The notes under the pieces are model-generated. The model was not told the origin of the DNA and did no database searches. It saw only the letters and a list, made by a program, of their open reading frames with translations. 64,000 nucleotides of DNA from an uncultured Gammaproteobacteria bacterium. GTDB taxonomy: Bacteria; Patescibacteriota; Microgenomatia; CAYQLK01. The stretch is from NCBI GenBank assembly GCA_964349875.1, contig CAYGIG010000001.1, forward strand, positions 52 to 64,051, written 5' to 3'. Each line of letters opens with the position of its first letter. Within the stretch, counting starts at the first letter, position 1. The position numbers and the translations under genes are program-made. This document shows positions 714-49,465 of this stretch, piece by piece.

Positions 714-1388
714 TTATTTTTTTACTATTCTCTTCTTTGTTCCGTTAATTCCTTTTTTTATTATCTCTCTGCTGCCAGGATCCTTTAAAATATGCCAAGC
801 AGCTGGTGCAACTGAGACAAAGATAATTATTGCAATAATTAGCAGTAAATAATTATCTATACCGGGAATCTGACCTAGGAAAAAACCTAGTAGTGTCACA
901 CCGACTGCCCAAGCAAAACCTCCAACCAAGTTATATAGAAAAAACGTCTTATAATTCATGTCCCCTATTCCTGCTACAACCGGAGCAAAAGTCCGGACAA
1001 ATGGGATAAATCTGGCTAGGATTATGGTTTTCCCTCCATGCTTTTCATAAAACTCTTGTGCTTTAAGCAAGTGCCCCGGCTTAAAAAATTTAGACTCTTC
1101 CTTGGTAAATAATTTTTTTCCAAATCTCTTGCCGGTCGTATACCCAACATTATCTCCAATTACCGCTCCTAAAAACACAAAAATTAACAGAGAATATATA
1201 TCGATAAGTCCGGTTGAAGCTAAAATTCCCGCCGAAATCAACAGTGAATCACCTGGTAAAAAAAATCCGACCAATAGACCCGACTCAGCAAATACTATTA
1301 AAGAAACCAATCCCACCCCAACTATACTTCTCAGCGAGGGATCAACCGACTCAATAATGTGTTTTATATCAAATATTCCAATAGCCAT
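714..1388 (-). CDS. DedA/SNARE-associated family membrane protein
   Basis: Motifs VGFFLPGDSLLISAGILA, GKRFGKKLF, ILARFIPFVRTFAPVVAGIGDMNY are typical of DedA (TVP38/TMEM64) family proteins. Confidence 0.75.
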   Translation of the reverse strand: MAIGIFDIKHIIESVDPSLRSIVGVGLVSLIVFAESGLLVGFFLPGDSLLISAGILASTGLIDIYSLLIFVFLGAVIGDNVGYTTGKRFGKKLFTKEESKFFKPGHLLKAQEFYEKHGGKTIILARFIPFVRTFAPVVAGIGDMNYKTFFLYNLVGGFAWAVGVTLLGFFLGQIPGIDNYLLLIIAIIIFVSVAPAAWHILKDPGSREIIKKGINGTKKRIVKK

Positions 1389-1408: not shown

Positions 1409-1717
1409 CTACCAAAACCAAAATTTACCACGACCAAAAAGCGGATAATACCGCAAAATCACCTTTCCTAAAACCATATTTTCTTCTATCCACCCAAATT
1501 CTCTCGAGTCAGTAGTAAAACTTTCATTCAAACCCATGACAAAAACCTTACCATTTTTTTTATTCACCACTCTTTTCAACAGCCTTCTATTTCCACCTCT
1601 TGGATCACAAAAAACCACATCGCTACCTACTTTAATTGACCCAAAACTAACTGAAATCAAAAAATCACCCTGAAAATAATCAGGCTCCATACTTCTCCCC
1701 TCAACCAAAAACCTCAT
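1409..1717 (-). CDS. sodX: S26/S24-type signal-peptidase-like protease, candidate NiSOD maturation peptidase (SodX-like)
   Basis: The GRSMEP motif carries a Ser nucleophile and LLKRVV a Lys general base, as in SPase I/LexA-type peptidases. It lies directly downstream of, and co-oriented with, the NiSOD gene, as in Streptomyces sodN-sodX. Confidence 0.6.
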   Translation of the reverse strand: MRFLVEGRSMEPDYFQGDFLISVSFGSIKVGSDVVFCDPRGGNRRLLKRVVNKKNGKVFVMGLNESFTTDSREFGWIEENMVLGKVILRYYPLFGRGKFWFW

Positions 1718-1740
1718 TTAATTTAAAATTTGATTCTCTC

Positions 1741-2154
1741 TTACACCGCAGCCTTAGCTTTTTCAAACATTTCAGCTATCTCATCCACTGCCTTAACTAA
1801 TCTTTGTGCTGCATCCAAATGGGCATGTTGCTTGTTTTCTGAAATTAACTTAGCCGTATTCCAAACTTTATTATGCAAATCCGGAAACTTCTCTAAATGT
1901 TCCGGTTTGAAAAAATCAGTCCACAAGGTCAATATTTCTTGTTTGCAGATTCTGGCATGTTCTTCCTTCGTAGTAACCATTCTCACAAAACTATTCATAT
2001 CAGACGGTGCCATTTCTTTTGGCAAGGCTAAGATTTTCTCAACCATCTTTAATACCGTTGCAGCTGCTATTTGAGCCGGTTTTGGATCATAAATACCGCA
2101 TGGCACATCGCAATGTGCGAACACTTTGTTGGAGGGTTTAAATATATTAATCAT
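1741..2154 (-). CDS. sodN: nickel-containing superoxide dismutase precursor (NiSOD)
   Basis: The mature N-terminus HCDVPCGIYDP follows a 13-aa leader MINIFKPSNKVFA. This is the canonical Ni-hook motif (His1, Cys2, Cys6). Length of 137 aa and the helical remainder fit NiSOD. Confidence 0.8.
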   Translation of the reverse strand: MINIFKPSNKVFAHCDVPCGIYDPKPAQIAAATVLKMVEKILALPKEMAPSDMNSFVRMVTTKEEHARICKQEILTLWTDFFKPEHLEKFPDLHNKVWNTAKLISENKQHAHLDAAQRLVKAVDEIAEMFEKAKAAV

Positions 2155-2216
2155 GTCAGTAATTATACCTCTGATAACAAAAGTACAATATAATCATTAA
2201 GAACTATTCCATAAGA

Positions 2217-3934: not shown

Positions 3935-4429
3935 TTAATTTACCCTAATTTTTTTCTTACCTCTTACTTCTAACGTTTTTTTGTTCTTAGTTTTTTTATT
4001 TTCCAACTTTGCAATCCAAACCATACAAACTCCAATCAACAGAAACGCCATCAAAGACAAAAAAGGAATATTTATAAATCCAAAAAACTCAAAATACTTA
4101 GTAGTACAAGATACCCCAAGCCGACACGGCGCCAAATTTTCCGCAATCACTCCAGCATTAAGCAGCACATGGTAAAAAGCCACCAATCCCCCGATTATCG
4201 TTAGCGGTAAGGCATATAAATACACTTTATAATCCCGTCTAAGCATCGCAATCAACAATATAACCGTTAATGGATATAAACAAATTCTCTGTATCCAACA
4301 TAGCTCACAAGGCGCAAACTTTAGCACCTCGCTAAAATACAAACTTGTAACCGTTCCCGCCAAAGCACAAAACCATGCAATATAAAGCAAATAACTTTTC
4401 ATCGACTGTAATAATAAACCATAAAACAA
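3935..4429 (-). CDS. bdbC: disulfide bond formation protein DsbB/BdbC family (likely true start at the internal Met near 4402)
   Basis: SLYFSEVLKFAPCELCWIQRICLYPL plus a second Cys pair (APCRLGVSCTT). Close resemblance to the Bacillus BdbC CxxC-WYQR motif. Confidence 0.75.
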   Translation of the reverse strand: MFYGLLLQSMKSYLLYIAWFCALAGTVTSLYFSEVLKFAPCELCWIQRICLYPLTVILLIAMLRRDYKVYLYALPLTIIGGLVAFYHVLLNAGVIAENLAPCRLGVSCTTKYFEFFGFINIPFLSLMAFLLIGVCMVWIAKLENKKTKNKKTLEVRGKKKIRVN

Positions 4430-17686: not shown

Positions 17687-18079
17687 TTATTCCGTGGTCT
17701 TACCGTCAAAATGTTCTTCCTGCTCCTCGGCGTCTTTTTTGGTGTGTCTGACAATTCCATCTTGGTGCTCAGGAGGAGAATAAACTGTATAAAGCTTTAG
17801 TTCATTATCTCCAGAATTAATCACGTTGTGCACACATCCCGCAGGAATAACTACCGCATAATCTGCACCTGCCTCTTGTTCTACTCCGTCCAAAACTACT
17901 TTGGCTGTACCCTGCTCAAAACGAATGAACTGATCTAGTGTGTGAACTTCTTCCCCTATTTCTTCGCCAACAGCTATCGACATCAGTACCAACTGGCTAT
18001 TTTTGCCCGTATAAAGCACTCTGCGAAAATCAGTATTTTCCAGTGTCGCTTTCTCAATATTAGTCAAATATCCTTTCAT
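17687..18079 (-). CDS. cupin domain protein
   Basis: Cupin motifs G-x5-H-x-H-like (EEVHTLDQF) and PAGCVHNVINSGDNELKLY. Confidence 0.6.
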   Translation of the reverse strand: MKGYLTNIEKATLENTDFRRVLYTGKNSQLVLMSIAVGEEIGEEVHTLDQFIRFEQGTAKVVLDGVEQEAGADYAVVIPAGCVHNVINSGDNELKLYTVYSPPEHQDGIVRHTKKDAEEQEEHFDGKTTE

Positions 18080-18164: not shown

Positions 18165-18257
<93 letters not shown>

Positions 18258-20372: not shown

Positions 20373-20648
20373 ATGAAACACATGGAGGACAAAAACAAGC
20401 TCAAAATTATCCAGCGTCTTAAGATTCTCGAAGGCCAAGTCCGAGGACTTCAGGAAATGATCGACAAAGATACTTATTGTATTGATGTCATTACCCAAAC
20501 ATCGGCAGTCAAACAAGGTCTGTCAAATGTCGAAGACTTACTACTCAGCAATCACTTAGACAGCTGCATCATCGACCAACTCAAATCCGGACAAACAGAC
20601 AAAGCAAAAGAAGAAATCCTTAAAGTCTACAAGCTTAAGAGAAAATAA
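20373..20648 (+). CDS. csoR: CsoR/RcnR family copper-sensing transcriptional repressor
   Basis: 91 aa. Cys in [10 protein letters not shown] plus His/Cys in LSNHLDSCI give the C-H-C Cu(I) ligand set. Confidence 0.8.
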
Positions 20649-20649
20649 T

Positions 20650-22965
20650 ATGCACAGCGAAACTTATCAAGTAAAAGGAATGCACTGCGCTTCGTGCTCG
20701 TCGATGATTGAAAAGACTTTTAAAAAAGTTGAAGGGGTCGAGTCCGCCGAAGTTAATTACGGCACTGAAAAAGCCAAAGTCACTTTTGATCCAAAAAAAA
20801 CAAACCCTGAAGCTCTTTCCAAACACATCGAACCGCTTGGCTATTCACTAATTATGCCTACCGTCGACACACCAAATTCCCCTAGTGCCAGCGAAATGGG
20901 CATGTCCGCTAGCGATCACGCTGAACATTTAGGTCTCAATCAATCAAAAAAAGAAAAACTCATTGAAATTGCCGACATGCGATCAAAAGTAATTTCGGCC
21001 ATCCCTCTTGTGATTATCGGCATTTTTATCATGGGCTGGGATATTCTATCTGAGTTCAAAGTCGTTGCTCCCCCATCACAAAACCTTGAGGAATTTTTCC
21101 ATCATCTCCTGCCGATTATGGCTACATACATGTTATTTGTGGTCGGCAAACCATATCTTTTAGGTTTCTACCGTTTTCTCCGCTACGGCAAAGCCAATAT
21201 GGACACACTTATCGGCATCGGCACTTCGGTCGCATTTCTCTATAGTTTTATAATCACTGCTTTTGAAGAACCCCTTCGGCAGTATGTCAATGTTACTAAC
21301 ACCTATTACGACGTCACTATCGTAGTCATCACATTCATCGCACTCGGTAAATATCTTGAAGCCAGAGCAAAAGTTAAAACCGGAGATGCCATCGAAAAAC
21401 TACTTAACCTCCAGGCAAAAACCGCAATCGTTATTCGTAATAAAAAAGAGTTGGAAATTTCCATCAATCTAGTCATTCACGGCGACCGCATTGTGGTAAA
21501 ACCCGGAGCTCGGATTCCTGTCGATGGAACTGTAGCCGACGGGTCTTCTTTTGTCGACGAATCAATGGTTACCGGAGAGCCAATGCCAATCGAAAAAAAT
21601 GCCGGCGATACCGTCGTAGCGGGAACAATCAATACCACTGGCTCTTTTACCTTTACAGCAACCAAGGTCGGCTCAGAAACATTACTTGCTCAAATTATCA
21701 AGATGGTCGAAAACGCGCAAGGAAGCCGCGCGCCCATTCAAGCTTTGGCTGATAAAATTTCTGCCGTGTTCGTGCCAATCGTCTTAATACTAGCCTTTGT
21801 CACTCTCGGAGCTTGGCTTCTCATAGGCACGCCGCTACTCGGATTCTCCACCGCATTATCATTCGGACTTACATCATTTGTAGGCATCTTGGTTATTGCC
21901 TGCCCATGTGCTCTCGGCTTAGCAACACCTACAGCGATTATCGTCGGAGTGGGCAAGGGAGCCAAAGAGGGCATCTTAATAAAAGACGCCGCAACTCTGG
22001 AAAAACTTCACAAGGTTGATACCGTTGTCGTAGATAAAACCGGAACCATAACCCGCGGTAAACCGGAGCTGACAAGTATTCAAAACCTCTCAAAATTAAC
22101 CGACGAAAAAATTATCTCCATACTAGCTTCACTTGAAAACAAGTCAGAACATCCAATTGCTTACGCTATTACTCAGTACGCAAAAGCGAAAAATATTCGC
22201 TCCGTTACGATTTCGGGTTTTGAAATCATCAAAGGCAAAGGGCTTAAGGCTGTTATTGGAAAAATCGAATATTTTGCCGGCAACACCAAACTTGTTTCCG
22301 ATCTCAAACTTTCCTTTGACGTAAAGAATATTGAGGCAGAAACTTTACGAGGCAAAACCCCTGTCATTCTTGCCACAAAAAATGAAGTTCTAGGTATTGT
22401 TATGGTAGCTGATGCTATAAAACCCGAAGCCATTGAAGCAGTAAAAAATCTCCATAAGCTTGGAATCAAAACAGTTATGCTAACAGGTGATAACAAGAAC
22501 ACAGCTCTTGCCATTGCCAAAGAAGTCGGTATTGACGATGTAGTAGCCGAAGTACTTCCGGAAGACAAACTAAAGAAGATAAAAGAGCTGCAAAGTCAGG
22601 GTCATATCGTGGCAATGGCTGGCGACGGCATTAACGATGCCCCAGCTCTAGCTCAAGCCGATGTTGGTATCGCCATGGGAACCGGCACGGACGTGGCCAT
22701 CGAAACAGCCGGCATCACGCTCCTAAACGGAGATATTTCAAAACTTGTAAAAGCTATCCGACTATCTAAGTTCACTATGAACGGCATCAAACAAAACCTC
22801 TTTTGGGCGTTTATTTACAACATCGTAGGCATACCTCTTGCTGCAGGAATGTTTTATCCCATTTTTGGTTGGCTTTTAAATCCGGTTTTTGCTGGATTCG
22901 CAATGGCATCTTCCAGCGTCTCAGTCGTCGGTAATTCATTACGCCTCAAAACAAAGAAAATTTAA
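20650..22965 (+). CDS. copA: copper-translocating P1B-type ATPase
   Basis: N-terminal HMA domain [14 protein letters not shown] motif [18 protein letters not shown] phosphorylation site, GDGINDAP, eight TM helices. Confidence 0.95.
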
Positions 22966-22969
22966 ACCT

Positions 22970-23989
22970 ATGAAAACCCACACATTCCACGTTAATGGTA
23001 TGCACTGCAATGCTTGCGTAGTACTAACAGAAAGTGAGCTAAACGAAGTATCGGAAGTCTCCCATGTAAAAGCATCACTCAAACATCTTAATGTCGAAGT
23101 GACTGGAGACTTTGGCGACAAAAAACCAGAACACATCGCCCGCGACCTAAGCGTTGTTCTAGAATCACACGGCTATACTCTCTCCCTCGAAAAACAAAAA
23201 CATTCAGCCAAATGGTCTGACTTCCGCATTTCCCTTCCTGTTGCAGGAGCATTTATTGCACTATTTATCATCTTGCAAAAACTCGGCATCGTGAATTTAA
23301 TCACAGCATCGGATGTCAGCTATAGTACAGCGTTTATCATCGGCCTTATCGCCTCCGTTTCTACATGCATGGCAGTCGTCGGTGGCTTAGTGTTGTCCAT
23401 GTCTGCCAATTTTGCCTTAACAGGTGACAAGGTACGTCCGCAAATTTTATTTCATATCGGCCGGCTCATATCGTTTTTTATTCTTGGCGGTGCAATCGGC
23501 GCCCTTGGTTCGGCATTCCAACTTGGCACGACAGGCACAATTGTTCTTAGTTTTATTGTTGCGATAGTTCTTCTTATTCTTGGTATCAACCTTCTCGATG
23601 TATTTCCTTGGGCAAAAAAACTTCAGCCAACCATCCCAAGCTTAGTTGGCAAACATGTTTATGGGCTCAAAAATGTCAATCACATCCTTACCCCTCTCTT
23701 AATCGGCATTGCAACATTCTTTTTGCCCTGTGGATTTACTCAATCCATGCAGATTTATACCCTAACTACCGGGAGTTTTTTAACCGGAGCATTAATTATG
23801 TTTACTTTTGCACTCGGCACGCTTCCGGTACTTGCCCTCTTAAGTTTCAGCTCACTAAGTATTCACAAAAAAGCACAATCCGGGGTATTTTTTAAGACCG
23901 CCGGCCTTGTTGTAATATTTTTCGGAGTCTTTAATCTAATTAATGCACTAGTCGCTATCGGTATTATTCCGCCGCTTTTCAGTTTTTAG
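22970..23989 (+). CDS. HMA (CxxC) domain fused to a DsbD_2/CcdA-like 6-TM permease; putative metal/thiol transporter
   Basis: Start moved to the ATG at 22970, because the track ORF overlaps the copA end. VNGMHCNACVV HMA motif. Membrane domain with Cys in two half-repeats (VSTCMAVVGG, FFLPCGFTQSM). Confidence 0.5.
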   Translation: MKTHTFHVNGMHCNACVVLTESELNEVSEVSHVKASLKHLNVEVTGDFGDKKPEHIARDLSVVLESHGYTLSLEKQKHSAKWSDFRISLPVAGAFIALFIILQKLGIVNLITASDVSYSTAFIIGLIASVSTCMAVVGGLVLSMSANFALTGDKVRPQILFHIGRLISFFILGGAIGALGSAFQLGTTGTIVLSFIVAIVLLILGINLLDVFPWAKKLQPTIPSLVGKHVYGLKNVNHILTPLLIGIATFFLPCGFTQSMQIYTLTTGSFLTGALIMFTFALGTLPVLALLSFSSLSIHKKAQSGVFFKTAGLVVIFFGVFNLINALVAIGIIPPLFSF

Positions 23990-24017
23990 ACGAAGTTAAT
24001 AAAACATAAATGAATTT

Positions 24018-24398
24018 ATGAAAATACCAGGCAAAACAATTCTTATAGCCACAACAATTATTATTGGACTAGCGGCACTCTCTGGGTGTAGCAGCACTTC
24101 AGAAGCTGTAAACAATGTAAGCATGGCTGACGGTAAACAAATCATCAAAATCCAAGCTAAGGGTGGTTATTCCCCCAAAGTGACAACCGCCAAAGCTGAT
24201 ACGCCTACAACTATTGAGGTATCTACACAAAGTACTTTTGATTGTTCGTCAGCATTAGTAATTCCGAGCTTGAATTATCGTAAAAATCTTCCACCATCCG
24301 GAACTACAGATATCGAAGTTCCTGCACAAAAAGCCGGCACAAAATTGCAAGGGTTGTGCGCCATGGGAATGTACAGTTTTGTTGTGAATTTTAATTGA
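24018..24398 (+). CDS. lipoprotein with cupredoxin-like beta-sandwich; candidate Cu(I)-binding Cys/Met site
   Basis: Lipobox LSGCSS. C-terminal QGLCAMGMYSFVVNFN resembles the cupredoxin C-terminal ligand loop, with Met where His is usual. Sits in the cop operon. Confidence 0.4.
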   Translation: MKIPGKTILIATTIIIGLAALSGCSSTSEAVNNVSMADGKQIIKIQAKGGYSPKVTTAKADTPTTIEVSTQSTFDCSSALVIPSLNYRKNLPPSGTTDIEVPAQKAGTKLQGLCAMGMYSFVVNFN

Positions 24399-25956: not shown

Positions 25957-26084
25957 CTAACCTAACAAGTAGAAAACGGGGACCCCACAAAATCTTTGAT
26001 TTTGAAGGGGAGAAGGAGGAATGGCGGAAACCAATTTAACTTTACGTCAGAAAAGTCTCTTGGTTGTAGTCCATTCCAACGCGG

Positions 26085-26172
26085 CGGAGGGGGAGAGATT
26101 CGAACTCTCGGAAGGAAAAAATCCTTCAGCAGTTTTCGAAACTGCCGCACTAGTCCACTATGCGACCCCTCC
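26085..26172 (-). tRNA. tRNA-Ser (anticodon CGA), long variable arm, 3' CCG instead of CCA
   Basis: GGAGGGGTCGCATAGTGGACTAGTGCGGCAGTTTCGAAAACTGCTGAAGGATTTTTTCCTTCCGAGAGTTCGAATCTCTCCCCCTCCG. Anticodon loop TTCGAAA. Confidence 0.8.
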
Positions 26173-26196
26173 AAACTAAACTAGTTTACAGTATGG

Positions 26197-26248
26197 GTCG
26201 AACAAGGTTCTTCTAATGTATAACATTAGGTTCTTATGCGACCTCTCC
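26197..26248 (-). repeat. third copy of the tRNA-Ser-5'-derived hairpin repeat
   Basis: Minus strand GGAGAGGTCGCATAAGAACCT-AATGTTATACATT-AGAAGAACCTTGTTCGAC. Same flanks as the 18281 and 18341 copies, with a different internal palindrome (CTAATGT/ACATTAG). Confidence 0.7.
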
Positions 26249-26279
26249 TAAGCAGGCTTATTCTAACAAAAAAATTTTG

Positions 26280-26352
26280 TGCGCTCGGAGGGATTTGAAC
26301 CCCCGACTTTCAGATCCGGAATCTGACGCTCTATCCACTGAGCTACGAGCGC
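26280..26352 (-). tRNA. tRNA-Arg (anticodon CCG)
   Basis: GCGCTCGTAGCTCAGTGGATAGAGCGTCAGATTCCGGATCTGAAAGTCGGGGGTTCAAATCCCTCCGAGCGCA. Anticodon loop TTCCGGA. Confidence 0.85.
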
Positions 26353-26403
26353 AAAAAAGACAGGTCGATTGTATATCAAACCTGTCCTTTTAATAATCCA
26401 AAG

Positions 26404-26823
26404 TTAACTCCAGAGTGTCAAAATCGCTGCACTCACCAAAACAGACACTAAAGCATAACCGGCATTTATTGCAAAATACTTAATTGGCTTACTCTCGTAT
26501 AACCAACTGTTGATCATCCAAACAGCCACAAATCCCAACCAAACCCATCCGCCGATTTTTAACGCACCTACCAAATCATCACCAGCTCTAGTCCAAACCA
26601 AAAGTCTAGCCAGAACAAACGCGCCGATTAAATTACAGATAAGCCCAATCGCATACATTCGACCCATTTGGGATTGCGATGGTTTACCTTTTTTAGTATC
26701 CAGCCCTGCAGCTTTCATCCACTCTTTTACAAACATTACAGGCGAATACCAAGCTGCTCCAATTGCAAATGAAACCAAACCGGCAACTACCATTGCTAAA
26801 TAGTTTATTTCTGTTGCAAACAT
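26404..26823 (-). CDS. DUF1761 family membrane protein
   Basis: GAAWYSPVMFVKEWMKAAG motif typical of DUF1761. 4 TM helices. Confidence 0.55.
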   Translation of the reverse strand: MFATEINYLAMVVAGLVSFAIGAAWYSPVMFVKEWMKAAGLDTKKGKPSQSQMGRMYAIGLICNLIGAFVLARLLVWTRAGDDLVGALKIGGWVWLGFVAVWMINSWLYESKPIKYFAINAGYALVSVLVSAAILTLWS

Positions 26824-26842
26824 TTATTTATTCACCGCCTTC

Positions 26843-27214
26843 CTAATTGAAAAGCTTAATTAATTGAAAATAATTCCCGTCCGTGTCTTCAAAAGTCGCC
26901 ATTCTTGCATAGCCCTCAACATCATATGGCTCTTTTAGTACTTTCGCTTTTTTATCCTTTAACTCATTAAACTTTGTGTCTAAATCTTCCGTTTCAAAAT
27001 TCAAAAATAATCTTGAGGGATTTTCATTTCTGCCTTTTACTTCACTATGAGAAGATACAAACAAACTAACTCCATTTCCCAATTCAAGTTTCATTCCATA
27101 TTCCGCCTCCCCCCACTCTTCTTCTGAATTCATTTTCAACCCGACCACGTCACGATAAAATTTTCCAAGTTCTTTTGGGTGTTCACTGCTTAACATTACT
27201 GCACTTAATATCAT
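26843..27214 (-). CDS. VOC (glyoxalase/bleomycin-resistance) family protein
   Basis: 123 aa. Paired beta-alpha-beta-beta-beta module pattern. FYRDVVGLKM N-terminal motif. Confidence 0.55.
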   Translation of the reverse strand: MILSAVMLSSEHPKELGKFYRDVVGLKMNSEEEWGEAEYGMKLELGNGVSLFVSSHSEVKGRNENPSRLFLNFETEDLDTKFNELKDKKAKVLKEPYDVEGYARMATFEDTDGNYFQLIKLFN

Positions 27215-27262
27215 TATTTTAATTGTACCTCATGCTCCCTGTTTCACAATTCATCTGAATTT

Positions 27263-27280
27263 TGGCGGAGAGGAGGATTG
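27263..27280 (-). repeat. partial duplicate of the 3' end of tRNA-Ser(GGA) immediately downstream of the gene
   Basis: tggcggagaggagg at 27263 against tggcggagagagggg at the tRNA 3' end. Both tRNA-Ser(GCT) and tRNA-Ser(GGA) also share the downstream context ttagagtgtc. Confidence 0.45.
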
Positions 27281-27297
27281 GGTCTCCTTAGAGTGTC

Positions 27298-27387
27298 TGG
27301 CGGAGAGAGGGGGATTCGAACCCCCGATACGCTTGCGCGTAAACTTGCTTTCCAAGCAAGCGCCATAGGCCACTAGGCGACCTCTCC
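27298..27387 (-). tRNA. tRNA-Ser (anticodon GGA), CCA encoded
   Basis: GGAGAGGTCGCCTAGTGGCCTATGGCGCTTGCTTGGAAAGCAAG...GGGGGTTCGAATCCCCCTCTCTCCGCCA. Anticodon loop TTGGAAA. Confidence 0.85.
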
Positions 27388-27421
27388 AAGTGTGGTATTT
27401 TAGCAGAAGCCGTAAACCAAA

Positions 27422-28066
27422 TTGAAGCCGAATAAAAATTTCGCTGATATAATTGATTTTATGCCCACAAAATCAAAGTCAAAAAAAGGCCAAAGAGTCA
27501 TAGAAAAAGCCTTTAGCATCCCTGAATTCCCCAACCCAAACAGAAATCTGACAAAAGAAGAAATATTGGCACTCAAATCTGACGTTATCAGAAGCAAGAA
27601 CCTTTTATCATGGAAAGCTTACTCCCGTGTTTATAAAAAACGCACCAAGATGTACTACATCAATATCGCAATAATCGTTTTTTTGTTGGGACTGATCGCA
27701 ATTACCGTTAATGAGCCCATCGTTGCCCTGGTTATTTTGTCACTGGGGTTTGTTGCGTATGTGCTCGCTTATATTGAACCGGAAATTGTTGAAAACAAAA
27801 TAACTAGACTTGGAGTCGTTACAAATGGAAATGCCTTTTTATGGACAGAATTAGGAGATTTCTGGTTTTCTAGAAGAAACAACCAAACAATTCTTAACAT
27901 CACTCAAAATAGGCTTAGACCCGCGATAGTAATGATAATTGAAGACAGTAAGAAAGATAAAATAATTGACATACTTTCAGAACAGCTGAATTTTCGCCGC
28001 GACTACAAAGGCTTTGTCGTGGATAAGATGGCAGACAAGCTTGTTGAAAAAGTACCTTTAGAGTAA
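27422..28066 (+). CDS. hypothetical membrane protein
   Basis: Basic N-terminus and two TM helices. Followed by two hairpins (28090-28160). Confidence 0.4.
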   Translation: MKPNKNFADIIDFMPTKSKSKKGQRVIEKAFSIPEFPNPNRNLTKEEILALKSDVIRSKNLLSWKAYSRVYKKRTKMYYINIAIIVFLLGLIAITVNEPIVALVILSLGFVAYVLAYIEPEIVENKITRLGVVTNGNAFLWTELGDFWFSRRNNQTILNITQNRLRPAIVMIIEDSKKDKIIDILSEQLNFRRDYKGFVVDKMADKLVEKVPLE

Positions 28067-28274
28067 AATTCCCCTCGTTCTTTATCTTATTTATTAAAAA
28101 AGAAATTGCAAAGCAATTTCTCACAAAACACTAAAGTGTTTTGAAAGGACGAATGACAAAATTCATTTGCTCCCGTTACAAAGGGAATGAGAGTAGGACG
28201 GTCCGGCTTTAGTCGGATTTAGCTTTGCTAAAAGTTCGTCGAGAGAAAACCGTAGGTGTTCTCAGGAAAATCAA

Positions 28275-28347
28275 GCGCTCGTAGCTCAGTGGATAGAGTA
28301 TCAGATTGCGGATCTGAGGGTCGCAGGTTCGAATCCTGCCGGGCGCA
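28275..28347 (+). tRNA. tRNA-Arg (anticodon read as GCG; unusual for bacteria, verify)
   Basis: GCGCTCGTAGCTCAGTGGATAGAGTATCAGATTGCGGATCTGAGGGTCGCAGGTTCGAATCCTGCCGGGCGCA. Anticodon loop TTGCGGA. Confidence 0.7.
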
Positions 28348-28361
28348 CAATTATTACTTAA

Positions 28362-28451
28362 TGGCGGAGGGGGAGAGATTCGAACTCTCGAAGGGCGTAA
28401 ACCCTTAGTCGTTTTCAAGACGACCGCACTAGTCCACTATGCGACCCCTCC
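28362..28451 (-). tRNA. tRNA-Ser (anticodon TGA), CCA encoded
   Basis: GGAGGGGTCGCATAGTGGACTAGTGCGGTCGTCTTGAAAACGACTAAGGGTTTACGCCCTTCGAGAGTTCGAATCTCTCCCCCTCCGCCA. Anticodon loop CTTGAAA. Confidence 0.85.
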
Positions 28452-31344: not shown

Positions 31345-31782
31345 ATGCGTATTGCTAATCGTCGCGCCTATCATGATTATTTCATTCTAGAAACCTTCGA
31401 AGCGGGTATTGCTCTTGCGGGCTCCGAGGTAAAATCTCTCCGCCTCGGAAGAGGTAATTTGCAGGAAAGTTTCGTTAAAGTATTATCTGACGGTCTTTAC
31501 CTCGTCAATTGCCATATACCCTCGTTCCAAGGTTCACAGCTCAACATTAGTCCCGATCGAGACCGCAAATTACTCATGCACAAAAAAGAAATCCTCCATC
31601 TGACCATGCATAACACTCAAAAAAGTATTTCCATTATTCCACTCGCAATTTATTTCAAAAATAATCTTGTTAAAATCCAAATTGCTCTTGCCAAACCCAA
31701 AAAACTCGCCGACAAAAGAGCAACTTTAAAAAAAGCCGCGATTGATCGCGACATTGCCAAGTCTTTAAGGTCTAAAATATAA
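31345..31782 (+). CDS. smpB: SsrA-binding protein SmpB
   Basis: IANRRAYHDYFILETFEAGIALAGSEVKSLR, KLLMHKKEI and the basic C-terminal tail match SmpB. Confidence 0.9.
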   Translation: MRIANRRAYHDYFILETFEAGIALAGSEVKSLRLGRGNLQESFVKVLSDGLYLVNCHIPSFQGSQLNISPDRDRKLLMHKKEILHLTMHNTQKSISIIPLAIYFKNNLVKIQIALAKPKKLADKRATLKKAAIDRDIAKSLRSKI

Positions 31783-33727: not shown

Positions 33728-34405
33728 CTATCCTGCCAACACCAGTACCCACACTTTCCCAGCCCCTCTTCGTTTCAAAACTTTCACACACTCTCTTGCA
33801 GTCACTCCGGTAGTTATTACATCGTCTATTAACAGAAAATTTGACCCTTTTTTAAAATTATTCTTCACTTCAAAAGAATTAATGATATTTTTTAGTCTCT
33901 CTTTTTTGTTCAACTCAAATTGAGGCTTGGTATCCTTGTTTCTTTTTAAGCAATCCTCAGTTTCTAAGCCAAATTTAGCAGCCGCAGCCCGCCCCAAAAG
34001 CTCCGCCTGATTAAACCCTCTTTTGTTTAATTTCGTGTTTGATATCGGCACCCAGGTAACTACAAAATTATTCCTCTTCCAATAATCCACCAGCCGAGAA
34101 TCTGTTTTTGCATAAAGTTCAGAAAGCTCAACAACCAAACTTCTTACCCGACGAAATTTTATTTCTTTAATCAGTTTTTTGATTCCGCCTTTGTATCTAA
34201 AAATTACAAATATTCCTTCTACAGAAAGAACTGTTTTACATTTTGGATGAGTCAATCCGTCTAATCCAAGCCTACGGCACTTAATACAGCGCTGACTCAG
34301 GTAAAGCTCCTGTTTTTTAATACATTTTGCACAAAAATAAGTCGCACTTTTCCCGCACCCGATGCATTTTTTAGGAAACAGCCAACTACTAACAAAATTA
34401 AGCAT
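33728..34405 (-). CDS. comFC: ComF family protein (ComFC, phosphoribosyltransferase-type competence protein); start placed at the internal Met after the tmRNA terminator
   Basis: N-terminal zinc finger CIGCG...CAKC. C-terminal PRTase motif LLIDDVITTGVTAREC. The upstream part of the track ORF overlaps the tmRNA gene and is rejected. Confidence 0.75.
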   Translation of the reverse strand: MLNFVSSWLFPKKCIGCGKSATYFCAKCIKKQELYLSQRCIKCRRLGLDGLTHPKCKTVLSVEGIFVIFRYKGGIKKLIKEIKFRRVRSLVVELSELYAKTDSRLVDYWKRNNFVVTWVPISNTKLNKRGFNQAELLGRAAAAKFGLETEDCLKRNKDTKPQFELNKKERLKNIINSFEVKNNFKKGSNFLLIDDVITTGVTARECVKVLKRRGAGKVWVLVLAG

Positions 34406-34416
34406 AATTTTAAGCA

Positions 34417-34449
34417 ACAAAAAAGGCCGCCCATGTTGAGCAGCCTTTT
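34417..34449 (-). terminator. Rho-independent terminator downstream of tmRNA
   Basis: Minus strand AAGGCTGC-tcaacatg-GGCGGCCTT followed by a T-run. Confidence 0.45.
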
Positions 34450-34480
34450 TGTCTTTTCCTTTTTCAAGAAATTCCATTAG

Positions 34481-34934
34481 TGGAGATGGCGGGCTATGAA
34501 CCCGCGTCCGATAATAATCCGAAAAGAAACTTCTACAAGCGTAGTTAGTGTTTATAAAAATCATTCTGATCTCCAAACCCACTAACAGGCGCTGGAGGCA
34601 AAACTATCTAATTTAATTAAGAATACCCAAAATTAATTGAGTACTAATAATATCTTTTCCGCATTTCTCAAAATTAGCAAATGAGCGCTTAGACTCCAAC
34701 AAAGGTTATACCCTAAGCGGCTCCGTTGGAGAAAAACCACTTAAAGTCCTTATCGGCCTAACTTAGGCAAAAGCGTAAGCAGACGGACGAGGAGCAAACA
34801 ATCCCGCGAGGGAGTCGTTTACTTTGTCAGAAATTTTGCTGACATTTATTTTTTCTAAAAATATTTTGCGAGTTATTTAGAATCACTCGGCTTGCAGTTT
34901 TTAACGAGCTAAACCGTCGAGGCAATACATCCCC
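34481..34934 (-). ncRNA. ssrA: tmRNA (SsrA), ~454 nt, CCA not encoded
   Basis: 5' end GGGGATGTATTGCCTCGACGGTTTAG (conserved GGGG..TCGACGG). 3' tRNA-Ala-like end GGACGCGGGTTCATAGCCCGCCATCTCCA with a G3-U pair in the acceptor stem. In-frame tag candidate ...GCT CCT CGT CCG TCT GCT TAC GCT TTT GCC TAA (APRPSAYAFA, stop near 34763). smpB is 3 kb away. Confidence 0.8.
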
Positions 34935-38240: not shown

Positions 38241-38576
38241 ATGACAGACCAACTTAAACAAATTGCTCTCACTCTCGGCGATGTCAACGTCGACAACCCA
38301 ATCGGCTATAACCAATCCGGTCAGGCGTATAACGTCGGCACCTTAATCACTGCGGCCATGCTTGTTGTGATTTTTCCGTTTGCATTTTTGGTTTCAATAA
38401 TCCTCATCGCAATCGGTGGATTAAGAATCATTATGAGCCAGGGCAACCCAGGCGCAGTCTCAGGCGGACGATCAATGATAATCAACTCAGTCATTGGGCT
38501 TGTAATCATCTCAATTGCCTGGGCTGTTACTTCATTCGTCTCCACCAACCTACTTAACGTCAACGTAATCGGATAA
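38241..38576 (+). CDS. VirB2/TrbC-type T4SS pilin-like protein (paralog 2)
   Basis: TM1 LITAAMLVVIFPFAFLVSIILIAIGG, loop IIMSQGNPGAVSGGRSM, TM2 IINSVIGLVIISIAWAV. Confidence 0.65.
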   Translation: MTDQLKQIALTLGDVNVDNPIGYNQSGQAYNVGTLITAAMLVVIFPFAFLVSIILIAIGGLRIIMSQGNPGAVSGGRSMIINSVIGLVIISIAWAVTSFVSTNLLNVNVIG

Positions 38577-38577
38577 C

Positions 38578-38898
38578 ATGCAGGATTCCGCTAAATATTT
38601 AGCTCAAAACATAAGTATAAAAGAGTTGTTTCAACCCGCCAAAAGCGGAAAATTCGATAACGTGGGAGATCTTGGTTCTTTTATTTTTCAAATATTGCTT
38701 TATTTTGGCGTAATTCTCGCTGTGATTTTTATTATTATCGGCGGATACAAATTTATAACCTCCGGAGGCGACCCCGCAAAAGCTGCTGGCGCCAAAAGTA
38801 CACTTATTTATGCAATTGTTGGCCTTATTCTAATGTTCTTCTCTATTGTGATAATGTATGTAGTACAAGCCACTTTTATTAACAACGCCAAATTGTAA
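38578..38898 (+). CDS. VirB2/TrbC-type T4SS pilin-like protein (paralog 3)
   Basis: ITSGGDPAKAAGAKSTLIYAIVGLILMFFS loop and TM2. Start 2 nt after the previous stop. Confidence 0.65.
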   Translation: MQDSAKYLAQNISIKELFQPAKSGKFDNVGDLGSFIFQILLYFGVILAVIFIIIGGYKFITSGGDPAKAAGAKSTLIYAIVGLILMFFSIVIMYVVQATFINNAKL

Positions 38899-38899
38899 T

Positions 38900-39355
38900 A
38901 TGTCCAAAGTCAAATCGGCCATTATCACGGCAATATTTACGATCATCAATCTTTCAGGTTTTTTCCCTTTACTTGGCGTATCAAAAGCTCTGGCAGGCCC
39001 AACCGATGGAACTGATGGGGGTGGTAGTGGTGGAATTTCAGGAGAAAATAATCCATTAGGAGCAATAAGAGGTCCAAGCGGAGTTCCTACCGAACCAGGC
39101 TCCCTTGTTTCTATCATTAATTTATTAATAAAAGGTTTGATGGGAATTGGTTTTTTATTAGCTTTTATTTACTTACTTCTTGCAGGAATTAGCTATATTA
39201 CTAGTAACGGAGAACCTGCCAAAACCGCCGCAGCTCAGAAAAAAATCATCTACGCCATTATTGGAATGGTTGTTATTGGACTATCTTTTGCGGTCCTTTC
39301 ACTAATCGAAACAATATTCGGAATACCGGTTACAAGTCCGGAGCTTCCATTCTAA
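38900..39355 (+). CDS. VirB2/TrbC-type T4SS pilin-like protein (paralog 4) with Gly-rich insert
   Basis: ITSNGEPAKTAAAQKKIIYAIIGMVVIGLS, plus a flexible GPTDGTDGGGSGGISGENNPLG segment. Confidence 0.6.
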   Translation: MSKVKSAIITAIFTIINLSGFFPLLGVSKALAGPTDGTDGGGSGGISGENNPLGAIRGPSGVPTEPGSLVSIINLLIKGLMGIGFLLAFIYLLLAGISYITSNGEPAKTAAAQKKIIYAIIGMVVIGLSFAVLSLIETIFGIPVTSPELPF

Positions 39356-39424
39356 AACCTTGAAAGGGGGTGAGTTGTTATAAAAAAATTAATCGCCTTA
39401 TCATCTTCGATTGCCGGAACTTTA

Positions 39425-39763
39425 TTGACCTCAACATTTGCACTTGCTGACGAAATTAACGTAAACCCTTACGGAGTTAACGTCGCTGAACCTGGCCAAA
39501 TCTTAAGTTTCGTAATCAAAGCAATTATTTTTGCTGCGTTCCTTATCGCTTTCATCTGGCTGTTAATCGGTGGTATCAAATGGATCCTTAGTAGCGGAGA
39601 TCCAGGAAAAGTTGCTGCTGCCAGAAGCCAAGTAATTCACTCACTCGTTGGTTTAGTAGTTGTAGTTCTAGCTTTAGCTTTAATTATGCTTGTCCAACAG
39701 ATACTTGGAGTCAGTATTATTACTGGAGATTCATTTACCATTCCAACAATTGGAGGTAACTAG
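39425..39763 (+). CDS. VirB2/TrbC-type T4SS pilin-like protein (paralog 5); the signal peptide appears to be encoded upstream from ~39374 without a canonical start codon
   Basis: ILSSGDPGKVAAARSQVIHSLVGLVVVVLA. The in-frame upstream sequence after the TGA at 39371 reads VVIKKLIALSSSIAGTLLTSTFALA/DE, a textbook signal peptide. Only GTT/ATA/TTG codons are available as starts. Confidence 0.55.
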   Translation: MTSTFALADEINVNPYGVNVAEPGQILSFVIKAIIFAAFLIAFIWLLIGGIKWILSSGDPGKVAAARSQVIHSLVGLVVVVLALALIMLVQQILGVSIITGDSFTIPTIGGN

Positions 39764-39961
39764 GTTTTGGGTATCGTTAAACGCATACCTTGTAGCTTTT
39801 GTTTGAAAAAAAGTGGAAGATCTGTCCTTTTTCGAAGAACAATTAAGCGAGAACTTAAATTTCTAGTTCTTGAATAATATCGATTGCCGGAGAATGTATC
39901 CAGCAATCGATATTTCAAGTTTTAAACAAATTACTGTTATTATTTAGTTAATAGTCAAGAT

Positions 39962-40345
39962 ATGCCCAAATACCTCAAAATAATCTCAGCCTTCATTGCC
40001 ATAAACATCGGTTCTTCCACTGCGGTTTTTGCTGACGGAGAACCGCCGCAGATTGTGCAGCTTACAGAATTGATCAGCAAAATTATTGGATTTATCGCAC
40101 CAATTGCCGGTATTGGTTTCTTTCTAATACTTGTCTACGCAGGCTATTTGTACATCTTTTCTTTTGGTGATCCAGGCAAAGCCGGCAAGGCTCGAAGTGC
40201 CATGCTAACAGCCGTTATCGGTCTTGTCGTCTTGGTACTAATCTATTTAGTTTATGTCGCAATTGGGCTAATGACCGGCTGTAATGTACTTGAACTAAAC
40301 TTCAACAACCCTGACTCGGTTTGTCCAAGTAATACCGGGTCATAA
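39962..40345 (+). CDS. VirB2/TrbC-type T4SS pilin-like protein (paralog 6)
   Basis: Signal peptide, then IFSFGDPGKAGKARSAMLTAVIGLVVLVL. C-terminal Cys pair (GCN...VCPSN). Confidence 0.6.
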   Translation: MPKYLKIISAFIAINIGSSTAVFADGEPPQIVQLTELISKIIGFIAPIAGIGFFLILVYAGYLYIFSFGDPGKAGKARSAMLTAVIGLVVLVLIYLVYVAIGLMTGCNVLELNFNNPDSVCPSNTGS

Positions 40346-40355
40346 TTCAAAAGCC

Positions 40356-41540
40356 GTGATACCACAAAAAAAGATTCTCAGTTTTTTTGTATCCGTCACA
40401 CTAATCTTGGCCTCAGCTCCTCCTGTTTTGGCCGCTGCACCCAAAGTCTGTACCTACCCCGCTCCGCCAGATAGCTCCAACCCAACTTATGTCCAACCAA
40501 CCTGGTTCGAATTAGAAAACAAAACCGAAAACGAATTTAAACCTCCAAGGGCAGTAGTCAATGCCTCAGGAAACTCCGCCGTTGTAAACAAACCTGTATT
40601 ACCCTACGCACGCTCGATGGCCAACTACCTTGAGGGGAAATTTCAAACAGATTCACACCGTAAAGCAGATATTTCAAAATTTACCAATAATGAACTCAGC
40701 AACTTTAATGGACCATTAATAAAAGTATTACCTAAAAACAACCTCGACAAGCTCCGTCAAACCTATGTCGAAACAGTCTATCAGCTCTCCAAATCAGGCA
40801 CCACCAAGCTCGAGGAAGCAACCGCAGAATATGCCGACTTCTGTGGTCAGCATTTCAGAACAATTAAGGACCTATATTCAGCTTGGGGCAAACCCAAACC
40901 TCCGGGGCTAGACCAAGGTGTTTCCAACTCCAAATGGGAGAGTACTTGGGGAAGATATTGGGCAAAAATTCCTCTAGTCACCAATTGGACCTCAAGAGGC
41001 TGTCTCTCCTCGACATCTGACTCAAAAGACGTTTCCGAATCCTGCACTCCCGGAAGAGATTTGCTTCTAGGTGTCCCTTCTGTTGCCAGACTGGCTGCGC
41101 TTTCTCAAATCTTGCAGCAAATCACTATTCCGCAGGACCTAATCAAAGAAGCCAAAGATTTTAATCCCGAACCCGCCAAGGCCGAAGGACGCGAAGGCCC
41201 AGGAGAAGAATATATTCTTCTCTACAATAGCTCAGGCGTAGTTGCTAATTCTGTTGCTTACACCAAGACCGGTAGTCTAATTTCTGCCCGCATACCTTAT
41301 GTTGACGTCGCCTGGAAATCCTTAGTTCGCAAAAAAACCGGCGGTTTTAGACTGTTTGGCCCAGGAGATTTTTGGAGTACCCACAACACAGGCGAATTTT
41401 CCGATACAGCCTCAACCAGACTTAAAGGCTTTGGTAGTTCCAATCAAGTCTGGGCGGGTTACCTAGGCAGCATTCAAACCGCTAAAGAAATCATCCTAAA
41501 AACCATTACCCCTAAAGATGTTGAAATCAAAAAAGAGTAA
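40356..41540 (+). CDS. secreted protein of the T4SS-like locus (signal peptide; possible pilus-associated or adhesin component)
   Basis: GTG start. MIPQKKILSFFVSVTLILASAPPVLAAAP signal peptide. Mature part has several Cys. No known motif. Confidence 0.45.
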   Translation: MIPQKKILSFFVSVTLILASAPPVLAAAPKVCTYPAPPDSSNPTYVQPTWFELENKTENEFKPPRAVVNASGNSAVVNKPVLPYARSMANYLEGKFQTDSHRKADISKFTNNELSNFNGPLIKVLPKNNLDKLRQTYVETVYQLSKSGTTKLEEATAEYADFCGQHFRTIKDLYSAWGKPKPPGLDQGVSNSKWESTWGRYWAKIPLVTNWTSRGCLSSTSDSKDVSESCTPGRDLLLGVPSVARLAALSQILQQITIPQDLIKEAKDFNPEPAKAEGREGPGEEYILLYNSSGVVANSVAYTKTGSLISARIPYVDVAWKSLVRKKTGGFRLFGPGDFWSTHNTGEFSDTASTRLKGFGSSNQVWAGYLGSIQTAKEIILKTITPKDVEIKKE

Positions 41541-41593
41541 TTTTGCAAAAACTCATCGGTTAAGCATAAAATAAGCTAATTACTGCCAAACAA

Positions 41594-43279
41594 ATGCGTC
41601 TCAAACTAGTCCTGCCAATTATCGTAATAGCTAGCCTTCTCCTAACATTTTTCAGCTTCAAACCAGTATTTGCCGAGGACCCTTTTAAATGTGACGAGCA
41701 AGCAGCAGCCGCTGGCGGTGCAGCTTCAGGCACTTCAGCAATTTCCAACCCCCAATTGGGAGTCGGCGAAACAGTTCAACCCTACCAGCAATCAATTTGT
41801 CAGTACAAAAATGCCCTCGACGAGGACGATGTTAATCTGCAAAAATTCAACCTCGGCCTTATGGACAATCTTGCATTTGGCATTAATCGCCAAATTACCG
41901 GCCTCCCCGCAACAGACGCAGAATTAGCCTGTCTGGAAGCAGGTACATGCAAAACCAGTGCCGCAATTCCTTTTCTGATGAAAAGCATTTCTATGCTTTA
42001 CACTGAAAAACCGGCTTCAGGAGTGCAATATTTGGCCGACCTTAAATCAAAAATCACAGGCGACACACTCGCCGCCCAAACTGGCTACGACGCACTTAAA
42101 CCTACCCAAGCTCTTTGGACAACCTTCCGCAACCTCACCCTTCTTTTGTATGTCATTTTCTTTATCGTTATTGGTTTTATGATTATCTTCCGCCAAAGAT
42201 TAAGCTCTAGCTCTGTCGCTTCTGTTCAAGCGGTATTGCCAAAAATAATTGTCAGTCTAATTCTAGTAACTTTCTCCTATGCCATTGTTGGCTTAATGAT
42301 CGACCTGATGAACTTTTTCATCGCCATTATGATTAATATTCTTTCCACTCAAGACGTGGCCAGAGCAAACTCGAACGATATTTACTACAACAAAAGTGTC
42401 TTTAGTTTTATGTTTAATGACCTTTTTCTGAAAAATATCACAGGTATATTTTCTGTGCCGAACGATATTATCTCAGGGGCTCTTGATGAGGTCGACGTAA
42501 TGCCTGACTTAATTAATAATTTTGCCTCAGGATTACTCGCCGGCCTCGCAGTTGCTGTCATTGCAATAATGCTACTAGTCGCAACATTTAGAGTATTCAT
42601 GATGTTGCTAATGGCTTATGTTAAGGTCTTTTTCTACACCATCTTTGGGCCACTGATGATTGGTATTGGTGTTATTCCAGGTATGCCGGGATTTGGGCCA
42701 TGGATAAGAAACATCGCCGCACAACTCTCAACATTTGTCATTACTATTCTAATGATTATTTTTGCTGCGTACTTTATGGGAGTCAGTAAAGGCGATAACG
42801 GAATAACCTCAGGCGAAGCGACAATAACCTCAGGCGAGGGTTGGAATGCGCCATTATTGGGCGGCTTCACAAACCCTGAAGGTGGCGGTAACGCACTAAA
42901 GGGAATGATTGGTATAGGAATACTTTTAGGTATTCCGTCGGCAGCCAAAATCGCTCAAGACGCCTTTAAGGTTAAAGGTGGTGGAATTGGCGGCATGATC
43001 GGCGGAGCAGCCGGCGCTAGTGCTGGTGCAGGCATGGCAATGGCTGGAAGTCCGTTTAGAGGCGCTGCCGGCAGAGCAAAAACAAATGTCAATAATTTTG
43101 CCGGAGAAAGATTGAACAACACTTTTAATCCATTGAGTGCTGACCGAAGATATGACAGGCTCTCAAGACAAGCAGGTGCCTCCACACCAATAAACCCAGG
43201 TACTTCAGGTCCTGCAGGTCCAACATCGGTACCGGGAGCTAGGAATAGAGTCGCAAACCCCTTCCGCCGGAGAACATAA
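41594..43279 (+). CDS. VirB6/TrbL-like polytopic membrane protein with N-terminal Cys-rich exported domain and Gly-rich C-terminal tail
   Basis: Signal peptide. ~150-aa domain with 5 Cys. Then 5-6 TM helices (LLLYVIFFIVIGFMIIF, IIVSLILVTFSYAIVGLMIDLMNFFIAIMI, LLAGLAVAVIAIMLLVATF ...). GGIGGMIGGAAGASAGAGMAMAGS tail. Placed between the pilin array and VirB4, as VirB6 is in Gram-positive systems. Confidence 0.55.
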   Translation: MRLKLVLPIIVIASLLLTFFSFKPVFAEDPFKCDEQAAAAGGAASGTSAISNPQLGVGETVQPYQQSICQYKNALDEDDVNLQKFNLGLMDNLAFGINRQITGLPATDAELACLEAGTCKTSAAIPFLMKSISMLYTEKPASGVQYLADLKSKITGDTLAAQTGYDALKPTQALWTTFRNLTLLLYVIFFIVIGFMIIFRQRLSSSSVASVQAVLPKIIVSLILVTFSYAIVGLMIDLMNFFIAIMINILSTQDVARANSNDIYYNKSVFSFMFNDLFLKNITGIFSVPNDIISGALDEVDVMPDLINNFASGLLAGLAVAVIAIMLLVATFRVFMMLLMAYVKVFFYTIFGPLMIGIGVIPGMPGFGPWIRNIAAQLSTFVITILMIIFAAYFMGVSKGDNGITSGEATITSGEGWNAPLLGGFTNPEGGGNALKGMIGIGILLGIPSAAKIAQDAFKVKGGGIGGMIGGAAGASAGAGMAMAGSPFRGAAGRAKTNVNNFAGERLNNTFNPLSADRRYDRLSRQAGASTPINPGTSGPAGPTSVPGARNRVANPFRRRT

Positions 43280-43305
43280 GTTAATCCAGGTTTTTAGAAA
43301 AAAAA

Positions 43306-48409: not shown

Positions 48410-48411
48410 AG

Positions 48412-49443: not shown

Positions 49444-49465
49444 CGGCACAAAAAATAATAAACAT

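Follow-up and report, generated by a model that had tools for sequence, protein, structure and literature searches.

A sodN–sodX pair predicted to make nickel superoxide dismutase in a small-genome Patescibacteria bacterium

Known sodN–sodX systems and the locus in the window

The product of sodN, a nickel superoxide dismutase (NiSOD), is converted into the active enzyme through processing by SodX, its cognate peptidase (PMC3919588), and NiSOD has been described as being activated by a maturation protease that cleaves the preprotein (PMC8346466). The pairing of sodN with sodX is established in cyanobacteria and streptomycetes (PMC3919588, PMC4284471, PMC8346466). Here we analysed a 64-kb stretch of DNA from contig CAYGIG010000001.1 (the window), running Pfam on about 60 of its open reading frames (ORFs) together with motif scans, the search being confined to this part of the genome. 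The window carries an intact, ordinary two-gene unit consisting of a NiSOD precursor and a small trimming protease, in a tiny-genome Patescibacteria bacterium, a member of the candidate phyla radiation (CPR). A sodN–sodX unit for cytoplasmic superoxide detoxification is very probably the best explanation of the locus. It is a new example of a well-known system and not a new kind of system, since NiSOD is already named in the NCBI records of several CPR groups, where several homologues appear as “superoxide dismutase, Ni”.

The genes and the spacer are as follows (nt, nucleotides; aa, amino acids).

1741–2154, minus strand: sodN, a 137-aa NiSOD precursor (Pfam Sod_Ni, TIGR02753, PDB match and predicted fold)
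1718–1740, minus strand: sodN–sodX spacer of 23 nt
1409–1717, minus strand: sodX-type gene; its 102-aa product is a soluble S26 Ser/Lys peptidase and the predicted maturation protease of NiSOD
714–1388, minus strand: gene for a DedA-family membrane protein, 20 nt downstream of sodX and co-oriented with it

Both the sodN and the peptidase ORFs lie on the minus strand, exactly where an earlier note on this DNA had placed them. The sequences, motifs, predicted folds and conserved gene order of the pair are directly established. An identical SodN protein is encoded on nine contigs, and the six of these that are listed come from independent ENA and Logan samples; the called gene order and gene lengths are the same in all six, so the locus is not a chimera or an assembly artefact. 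No terminator-like site was found in the 23-nt spacer, and sodN and sodX are therefore predicted to be co-transcribed.

The NiSOD (1t6u, 1q0d) and SodX (SCO5254/SCO5255) of Streptomyces coelicolor and Streptomyces seoulensis offer the first comparison. The hook has the form H-C-D-x-P-C-G-x-Y there and in the window, becomes N-terminal in both only after removal of a leader of similar length that ends in Ala, and is accompanied in both by an S26 Ser/Lys partner peptidase encoded next door (PMC3919588). The mature NiSOD chains are about 36% identical, and the window SodN differs from the Streptomyces protein by a six-residue insertion in the loop after helix 1 and by an extra invariant cysteine, Cys70. 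In Streptomyces, the conserved sodN–sodX intergenic region holds the 5' end of sodN (PMC3919588), whereas the window genes are co-directional and 23 nt apart, with no Nur box or anti-sodN small RNA context seen. This co-directional operon is the arrangement of Prochlorococcus and of other loci scanned.

Prochlorococcus and marine Synechococcus, with their sodT–sodN–sodX cluster, have the same order as the window, sodN followed by a small soluble sodX on the same strand (locus L040). Mature chains from Prochlorococcus and the window are 49% identical, the hooks read HCDGPCGVY and HCDVPCGIY, respectively, Ala takes the place of Glu17 in both, and both genomes are small. On the SodX model TIGR02754 the Prochlorococcus peptidase passes with 85 bits, as compared to 40 for the window protein. 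In those cyanobacteria NiSOD can be the sole superoxide dismutase (SOD) (PMC8346466), and the cluster also encodes SodT, a nickel permease of the UreH family (PMC4284471). The ORF of L040 that probably encodes SodT (265 aa, upstream of sodN) has no homologue in the window, where the third gene of the cyanobacterial cluster was not found and a DedA-family gene instead follows sodX.

Closer still are the pairs of other CPR bacteria (Levy-, Roizman-, Davies-, Magasanik- and Terrybacteria, and Saccharibacteria), which have the hook HCD[VI]PCGIY, 55–87% identity to the window SodN and the same downstream peptidase. The window and four related loci (L007, L008, L009 and L021; together, the window clade) are set apart from these by a short 13-aa leader, GLN or GIN ahead of box E of the peptidase, an FGRGKFWFW tail on SodX, a DedA gene downstream and the lack of Cys104 in SodN. 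At the sequence level, the locus is in every respect a sodN–sodX pair, except in its score on the curated SodX equivalog model. The papers found mention NiSOD in CPR only in passing, by counting sodN among the SOD genes of Patescibacteria metagenome-assembled genomes (MAGs) (bioRxiv 10.1101/2021.07.28.454184, PMC8672522), and one survey of NiSOD distribution does not list CPR among the phyla that have the enzyme (PMC8346466).

The SodN precursor and the predicted maturation peptidase

2116–2154, minus strand: leader MINIFKPSNKVFA, 13 aa, with predicted removal after Ala13; outside the mature Streptomyces chain in the alignment
2089–2115, minus strand: nickel hook HCDVPCGIY, precursor residues 14–22 and mature residues 1–9, with His1, Cys2 and Cys6 as predicted nickel ligands and Tyr9 as gate residue

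The earlier note had read sodN as a 13-aa leader followed by HCDVPCGIYDP, and the ORF at 1741–2154 on the minus strand indeed begins with MINIFKPSNKVFA and continues with HCDVPCGIYDP. An in-frame stop precedes the ATG at 2154 and no other possible start lies between them, which makes the 13-aa leader unambiguous; in all six reading frames of the window, H-C-x-x-P-C turns up a single time. SodN matches Pfam Sod_Ni (PF09055) with 145.4 bits (cutoff 25, E = 1.8e-42) over model positions 2–127 of 127, and the NCBIfam equivalog TIGR02753 from end to end with 152.8 bits (cutoff 90, E = 6.9e-45). Among solved structures it matches only NiSODs (1t6u/1q0d), with E values of about 1e-19 to 1e-20. The NiSOD core, whose presence after the hook had been set as a test of the assignment, was found: the alignment spans residues 1–115 of the 117 of mature Streptomyces NiSOD, with His14 of the precursor on His1 and the hook HCDVPCGIY on His1–Tyr9 of 1t6u.

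Conservation follows the same pattern. H14, C15, D16, P18, G20 and Y22 are invariant in all 120 homologues and C19 is present in 119 of the 120; SodN also keeps the residues that match Streptomyces Tyr9, Arg39, Asp61 and Lys64, as well as an intact LWTDFFKPEH core block. The AlphaFold model of SodN, built on the alignment of these homologues, has a mean predicted local distance difference test (pLDDT) score of 90.5; confidence is low in its leader and hook, after which come four long helices. All of the top 16 PDB matches that Foldseek gave for this model are NiSODs, with target template modelling (TM) scores of 0.89–0.92 and root-mean-square deviations of 1.6–2.5 Å, and the TM score against 1t6u is 0.89. 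The predicted fold is a right-handed four-helix bundle that carries the hook.

CPR-type NiSODs have two additional cysteines outside the hook. Cys70 of the precursor (1945–1947, minus strand) is invariant in 120 of 120 sequences, and Cys104 (its position at 1843–1845, minus strand) is present in 108 of 120 relatives, with Ile or Val at this position in the window clade. Streptomyces NiSOD has neither of these extra cysteines.

The leader ends in V-F-A, with Val at −3 and Ala at −1, which fits S26 specificity, and Ala stands at −1 before His1 in all 48 loci that keep the hook. The leader is predicted to be removable in such a way that His becomes residue 1. In the mechanism that we propose, sodN would be translated as an inactive 137-aa precursor, which the 102-aa soluble S26 peptidase, with Ser9 as nucleophile and Lys48 as base, would cut after Ala13 (VFA|H), making His14 the new N-terminus. 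Nickel would then be bound by His1 through its free amine, by Cys2 through its backbone amide and by the thiolates of Cys2 and Cys6, with the His1 imidazole joining in the Ni(III) state. The nine-residue hook would hold one nickel ion on the four-helix bundle, and Ni(II)/Ni(III) cycling would dismutate superoxide in the cytoplasm. By analogy with the characterised Streptomyces and Prochlorococcus systems, we expect that this peptidase cleaves the precursor and that SodN takes up nickel, forms hexamers and is active. Work by Eitinger from 2004 reportedly found the NiSOD of a Prochlorococcus strain to be active, and its dependence on the cognate peptidase is said to have been shown experimentally in Prochlorococcus.

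The main sites of the peptidase gene are listed below.

1691–1693, minus strand: Ser9 codon (GRSMEP), predicted nucleophile, aligned with the SM-P box of signal peptidases
1574–1576, minus strand: Lys48 codon (LLKRV), predicted general base
1493–1513, minus strand: box E, TDSREFG, with D70, S71, R72, F74 and G75 invariant
1409–1450, minus strand: C-terminal tail YYPLFGRGKFWFW (FGRGKFWFW end) and stop, clade-specific and of low model confidence
1688–1690, minus strand: Met10 codon, the false start of some gene callers, giving a 93-aa product without Ser9

The peptidase, which reads MRFLVEGRSMEP...RRLLKRVVN...FTTDSREFGW...YYPLFGRGKFWFW, had been described from its GRSMEP and KRV motifs as a co-oriented, downstream, 102-aa S26-like protein, and at 1409–1717 on the minus strand we find just this, with Ser9 and Lys48 in place. 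It scores 55.7 bits on Pfam Peptidase_S26 (cutoff 22.9, E = 7.4e-15). The Ser/Lys dyad on which the assignment had been made to depend is present: in an alignment of 111 homologues, Lys48, Gly62, Asp70, Ser71, Arg72, Phe74 and Gly75 never vary and the conservation of Ser9 is 90% or more, and Lys48 also occurs in nearly all syntenic peptidases. A profile search started from the window clade collected 930 homologues, and the named ones among them mostly go by “nickel-type superoxide dismutase maturation protease”. No membrane-spanning segment was found in the peptidase (maximum Kyte-Doolittle value of 1.53 over 19 residues). Its AlphaFold model (pLDDT 80) matches SpsB, LepB, SipA and LexA/UmuD with query TM scores of 0.68–0.76, which points to a Ser/Lys peptidase fold.

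The aromatic tail of this SodX is nearly invariant in the window clade, is absent from all other SodX homologues and is conserved more strongly within the clade than the catalytic domain.

The gene order is widely conserved. Scanning one genome per GTDB species gave 49 loci that encode SodN relatives, and in 44 of them the gene for an S26 peptidase comes straight after sodN, with both on the same strand; of the five exceptions, two are loci cut by contig ends. This order spans CPR, cyanobacteria (Prochlorococcus included), Actinobacteria-type and archaeal MAGs, in agreement with the proposal of the earlier note that the genes correspond to the known sodN–sodX pair.

The order sodN then sodX was also seen in L050, L051 and L053, from MAGs of marine group II archaea that carry the labels Thalassarchaeaceae, Poseidoniales and Euryarchaeota; binning errors are possible there. 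One survey describes NiSODs as restricted to bacteria (PMC8346466).

Counter-evidence and alternative explanations

Several observations weigh against a working NiSOD unit. In SodN, the positions of Glu17 and Arg47, which we take to be the second-sphere partners of His1 in Streptomyces NiSOD, hold Ala and His, and they are unconserved in most relatives too. The peptidase reaches only 40.4 bits on the SodX equivalog TIGR02754 (cutoff 63.25; model positions 3–88 of 90 covered) and barely passes the generic signal peptidase I model, with 48 bits against a cutoff of 47. Its box E is preceded by GLN where other S26 peptidases have GDN. Codons 6–8 (GAG GGG AGA) hold a Shine–Dalgarno-like GGGGAG 5 nt before ATG-10, and a start at Met10 only would give a product without the nucleophile. 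No nickel importer or chaperone (NiCoT/SodT, Nik, Cbi, HypB/UreG) was found in the 64 kb, and literature searches found no biochemical data for any CPR NiSOD.

The model scores bear on the idea that the cell uses the 102-aa protein as its general type I signal peptidase (LepB/SipS type) and that this protein is encoded beside sodN by chance. Type I signal peptidases (LepB, SpsB, SipS; MEROPS S26A) share with it the Ser/Lys dyad, boxes B, D and E, the fold and the preference for small residues at −1 and −3. The protein passes their NCBIfam model while failing that of SodX, signal peptidases are its best PDB matches in both sequence and fold, and Pfam found no other S26 gene among the window ORFs. 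However, it is only 102 aa long, as compared to 170–320 aa for signal peptidases, and lacks both their N-terminal transmembrane anchor and their large beta-domain insertions; its predicted substrate is a cytoplasmic 13-aa pro-peptide and not a secretion signal. The match to TIGR02754 covers the whole model, whereas that to TIGR02227 falls into two separate pieces, and a chance neighbour is at odds with the recurrence of the same small peptidase after sodN in those 44 of 49 loci.

The scores of sodN-adjacent peptidases on TIGR02754 also speak against a general signal peptidase, as they grade smoothly from 85 down to 40 bits among syntenic genes: 85 in Prochlorococcus, 74 in a marine group II archaeal MAG, 69 in Terrybacteria, 65 in L018, 64 in L039, 60 in L007 (a close relative of the window), 56 in Levybacteria and 48 in Acidimicrobiales. 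Since this series is continuous, the cutoff splits one orthologous series and represents an annotation threshold rather than a biological boundary. We therefore regard a general signal peptidase as very improbable. Judged by its sequence, the window peptidase is a divergent SodX, the most divergent sampled member of the syntenic series.

The start codon raises a different possibility, namely that the peptidase gene is effectively dead, being translated from Met10 into 93 aa without the serine, and that SodN is matured otherwise or never. Prodigal-type calls in several ENA and Logan assemblies do start at Met10 and give the 93-aa form (P0121, P0122, P0127 and P0128 as well), a choice that follows from the strong Shine–Dalgarno-like run visible ahead of ATG-10; ahead of the first ATG there is just a weak purine-rich stretch, about 16 nt away. 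The Shine–Dalgarno-like run is, however, a by-product of coding for G-(E/D/R)-S-M. A TAA stop immediately precedes the ATG at 1717, which sets 102 aa as the maximum length, and the NCBI copy of the peptidase has this 102-aa form. Five loci whose peptidases are 52–58% identical all keep ATG-1 and M-R-F-x-V-x-G-x-S, with synonymous differences at Arg2, Val5 and Gly7 that leave the amino acids unchanged. Such coding constraint in codons 1–9 means that the first nine codons are translated and that the 102-aa form is correct; Ser9 is kept in more distant homologues, too. We consider it highly unlikely that the peptidase gene is dead.

Finally, the SodN homologue might not work as a SOD here, being instead a relic or serving some other function as a nickel-binding protein, in an organism commonly viewed as fermenting anaerobically. 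The replacement of Glu17 and Arg47 and the lack of a nickel uptake gene nearby in the window would suit this view. Nevertheless, all the hook residues and the LWTDFFKPEH core are intact, the 60–87% identity to the homologues of other CPR species indicates purifying selection, and Patescibacteria of oxic groundwater show an enrichment of SOD genes (PMC8672522). Positions 17 and 47 differ likewise in Prochlorococcus, which has neither Glu17 nor Arg47, and in nearly all the other loci. We thus rejected the view that their loss marks an aberrant enzyme: most members of the family have these replacements too, which represent family variation, not a defect. A relic is extremely unlikely, and an intact NiSOD precursor with its own maturation peptidase is retained as the reading of the pair.

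Neighbouring genes, metal supply and host

The protein encoded after sodX belongs to the DedA family (Pfam VTT_dom, 80 bits; DedA model PRK10847, 186 bits), and its gene may be co-transcribed with sodN–sodX. Only in the closest clade (L007, L008, L009 and L021) does this gene come after sodX, and DedA as a conserved third member of the operon was rejected as a general feature on this ground. On the other side, the neighbour of sodN is a divergent PMT_2 glycosyltransferase gene, with a 62-nt intergenic region at 2155–2216 (around 4930–5010 in L007, L008, L021 and L009) that contains a candidate promoter element.

2162–2167, minus strand: TATAAT hexamer, 7 nt upstream of the sodN ATG, a candidate −10 box

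The same TATAAT lies about 9 nt before the sodN ATG in L007, L008, L021 and L009, and its position suggests a leaderless or near-leaderless sodN mRNA. No regulator-binding palindrome or Nur-like box was found upstream of sodN. A second block kept in the five loci, TGATTATA, which reads TATAATCA on the other strand, was also noticed; TATAATCA is a candidate −10 box for the divergent PMT_2 gene.

The further window genes named by the earlier note are all present: a DsbB/BdbC gene at 3935–4429 on the minus strand, a cupin gene at 17687–18079 and a copper module at 20373–24398 on the plus strand. DsbB/BdbC-type genes lie within 1–3 kb of sodN both in the window and in L012 (1664–2113), L016 (6309–6848) and L037 (7544–7981), three more distant CPR loci with 65–70% SodN identity in which the gene is on the strand opposite to sodN. 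The copper module comprises four genes, for a CsoR-type repressor, a CopA-type P1B ATPase, a fusion of HMA and DsbD_2 domains and a small cupredoxin. Its CsoR/RcnR-family repressor has the C-H-C copper fingerprint, and its P-type ATPase has the CxxC HMA domain and the CPC, YN...P and MxxSS motifs of Cu(I) exporters; with this fingerprint and these motifs, we rejected the module as a nickel system.

Pfam and the motif scans found no Fe/Mn SOD, Cu/Zn SOD or superoxide reductase in the 64-kb window, and no His-rich protein was found there either. One could combine these points into a joint reading, in which NiSOD would be the sole superoxide defence of this Microgenomates-type CPR lineage, nickel would come through DedA or from a host with none of the known importers involved, and the SodX tail would tether maturation at the membrane where the nickel enters. 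It draws on local gene order in one narrow clade only, and we think it unlikely.

Among relatives that have a name, Levybacteria, Roizmanbacteria, Daviesbacteria and other Patescibacteria come nearest, and a reduced genome, as we infer from these neighbours, fits the CPR affiliation. The closest GTDB relatives (L007–L013, L016, L018, L021, L023 and L049) are third-party annotation (TPA) assemblies that bear the title “uncultured Gammaproteobacteria bacterium”; both gene content and the nearest named relatives mark them as Patescibacteria, and the title looks like a placeholder or a mislabel. The window is chromosomal, with rpoD, dnaG, smpB, the transfer-messenger RNA (tmRNA) gene and the following replication-region genes.

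56233–57363: dnaN
57607–58971: dnaA
59377–59676: rnpA
59998–60834: yidC

The plus strand has a strongly one-sided GC skew, which lies below zero in all 2-kb bins (−0.05 to −0.31) whichever way the genes point and keeps its sign across the dnaA/dnaN region. A G/C strand disparity over the whole chromosome has been published for Microgenomatia of the order UBA1400 (PMC7143001), and the skew pattern hints at the taxonomic placement of the window. Four tRNA-Ser genes (CGA, GGA, UGA and, at 18165, GCU) and two tRNA-Arg genes were found, with a cluster of about 2.4 kb at 26083–28451. The smpB gene (31345–31782) and the tmRNA gene (34478–34934) are close together; the longest ORF of a ComF-like phosphoribosyltransferase (33728–34582) overlaps the tmRNA gene by about 100 nt, and its true start is therefore probably further in.

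A CPR-type type IV secretion-like cluster (compare bioRxiv 10.1101/2025.01.22.634366) occupies 38241–54872 on the plus strand; several of its large ORFs have no Pfam match. Its recognisable members are given below.

38241–40345, plus strand: five tandem small T4SS_pilin paralogues
46385–48409, plus strand: PrgI-like protein of 674 aa
49466–51334, plus strand: TraG/VirB4-like ATPase
51390–54872, plus strand: protein of 1160 aa ending in an M23 peptidase domain

With this locus, an already known system gains a further intact NiSOD/SodX pair, from an ultra-small CPR bacterium. The nickel need of the enzyme raises the question of supply in a minimal genome without a recognisable importer nearby. 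The pair accords with the report that Patescibacteria living in oxic groundwater are enriched in SOD genes (PMC8672522). In automatic gene calling, Met10 is often taken as the start of this SodX and the catalytic serine is lost, which may mislead surveys of catalytic motifs. CPR members of greater divergence escape the NCBIfam SodX model, so surveys that report “sodN without sodX”, as in PMC8346466, could under-count the protease. The practical value of the finding is a warning about artefacts of start codons and of hidden Markov model thresholds in the annotation of SodX.

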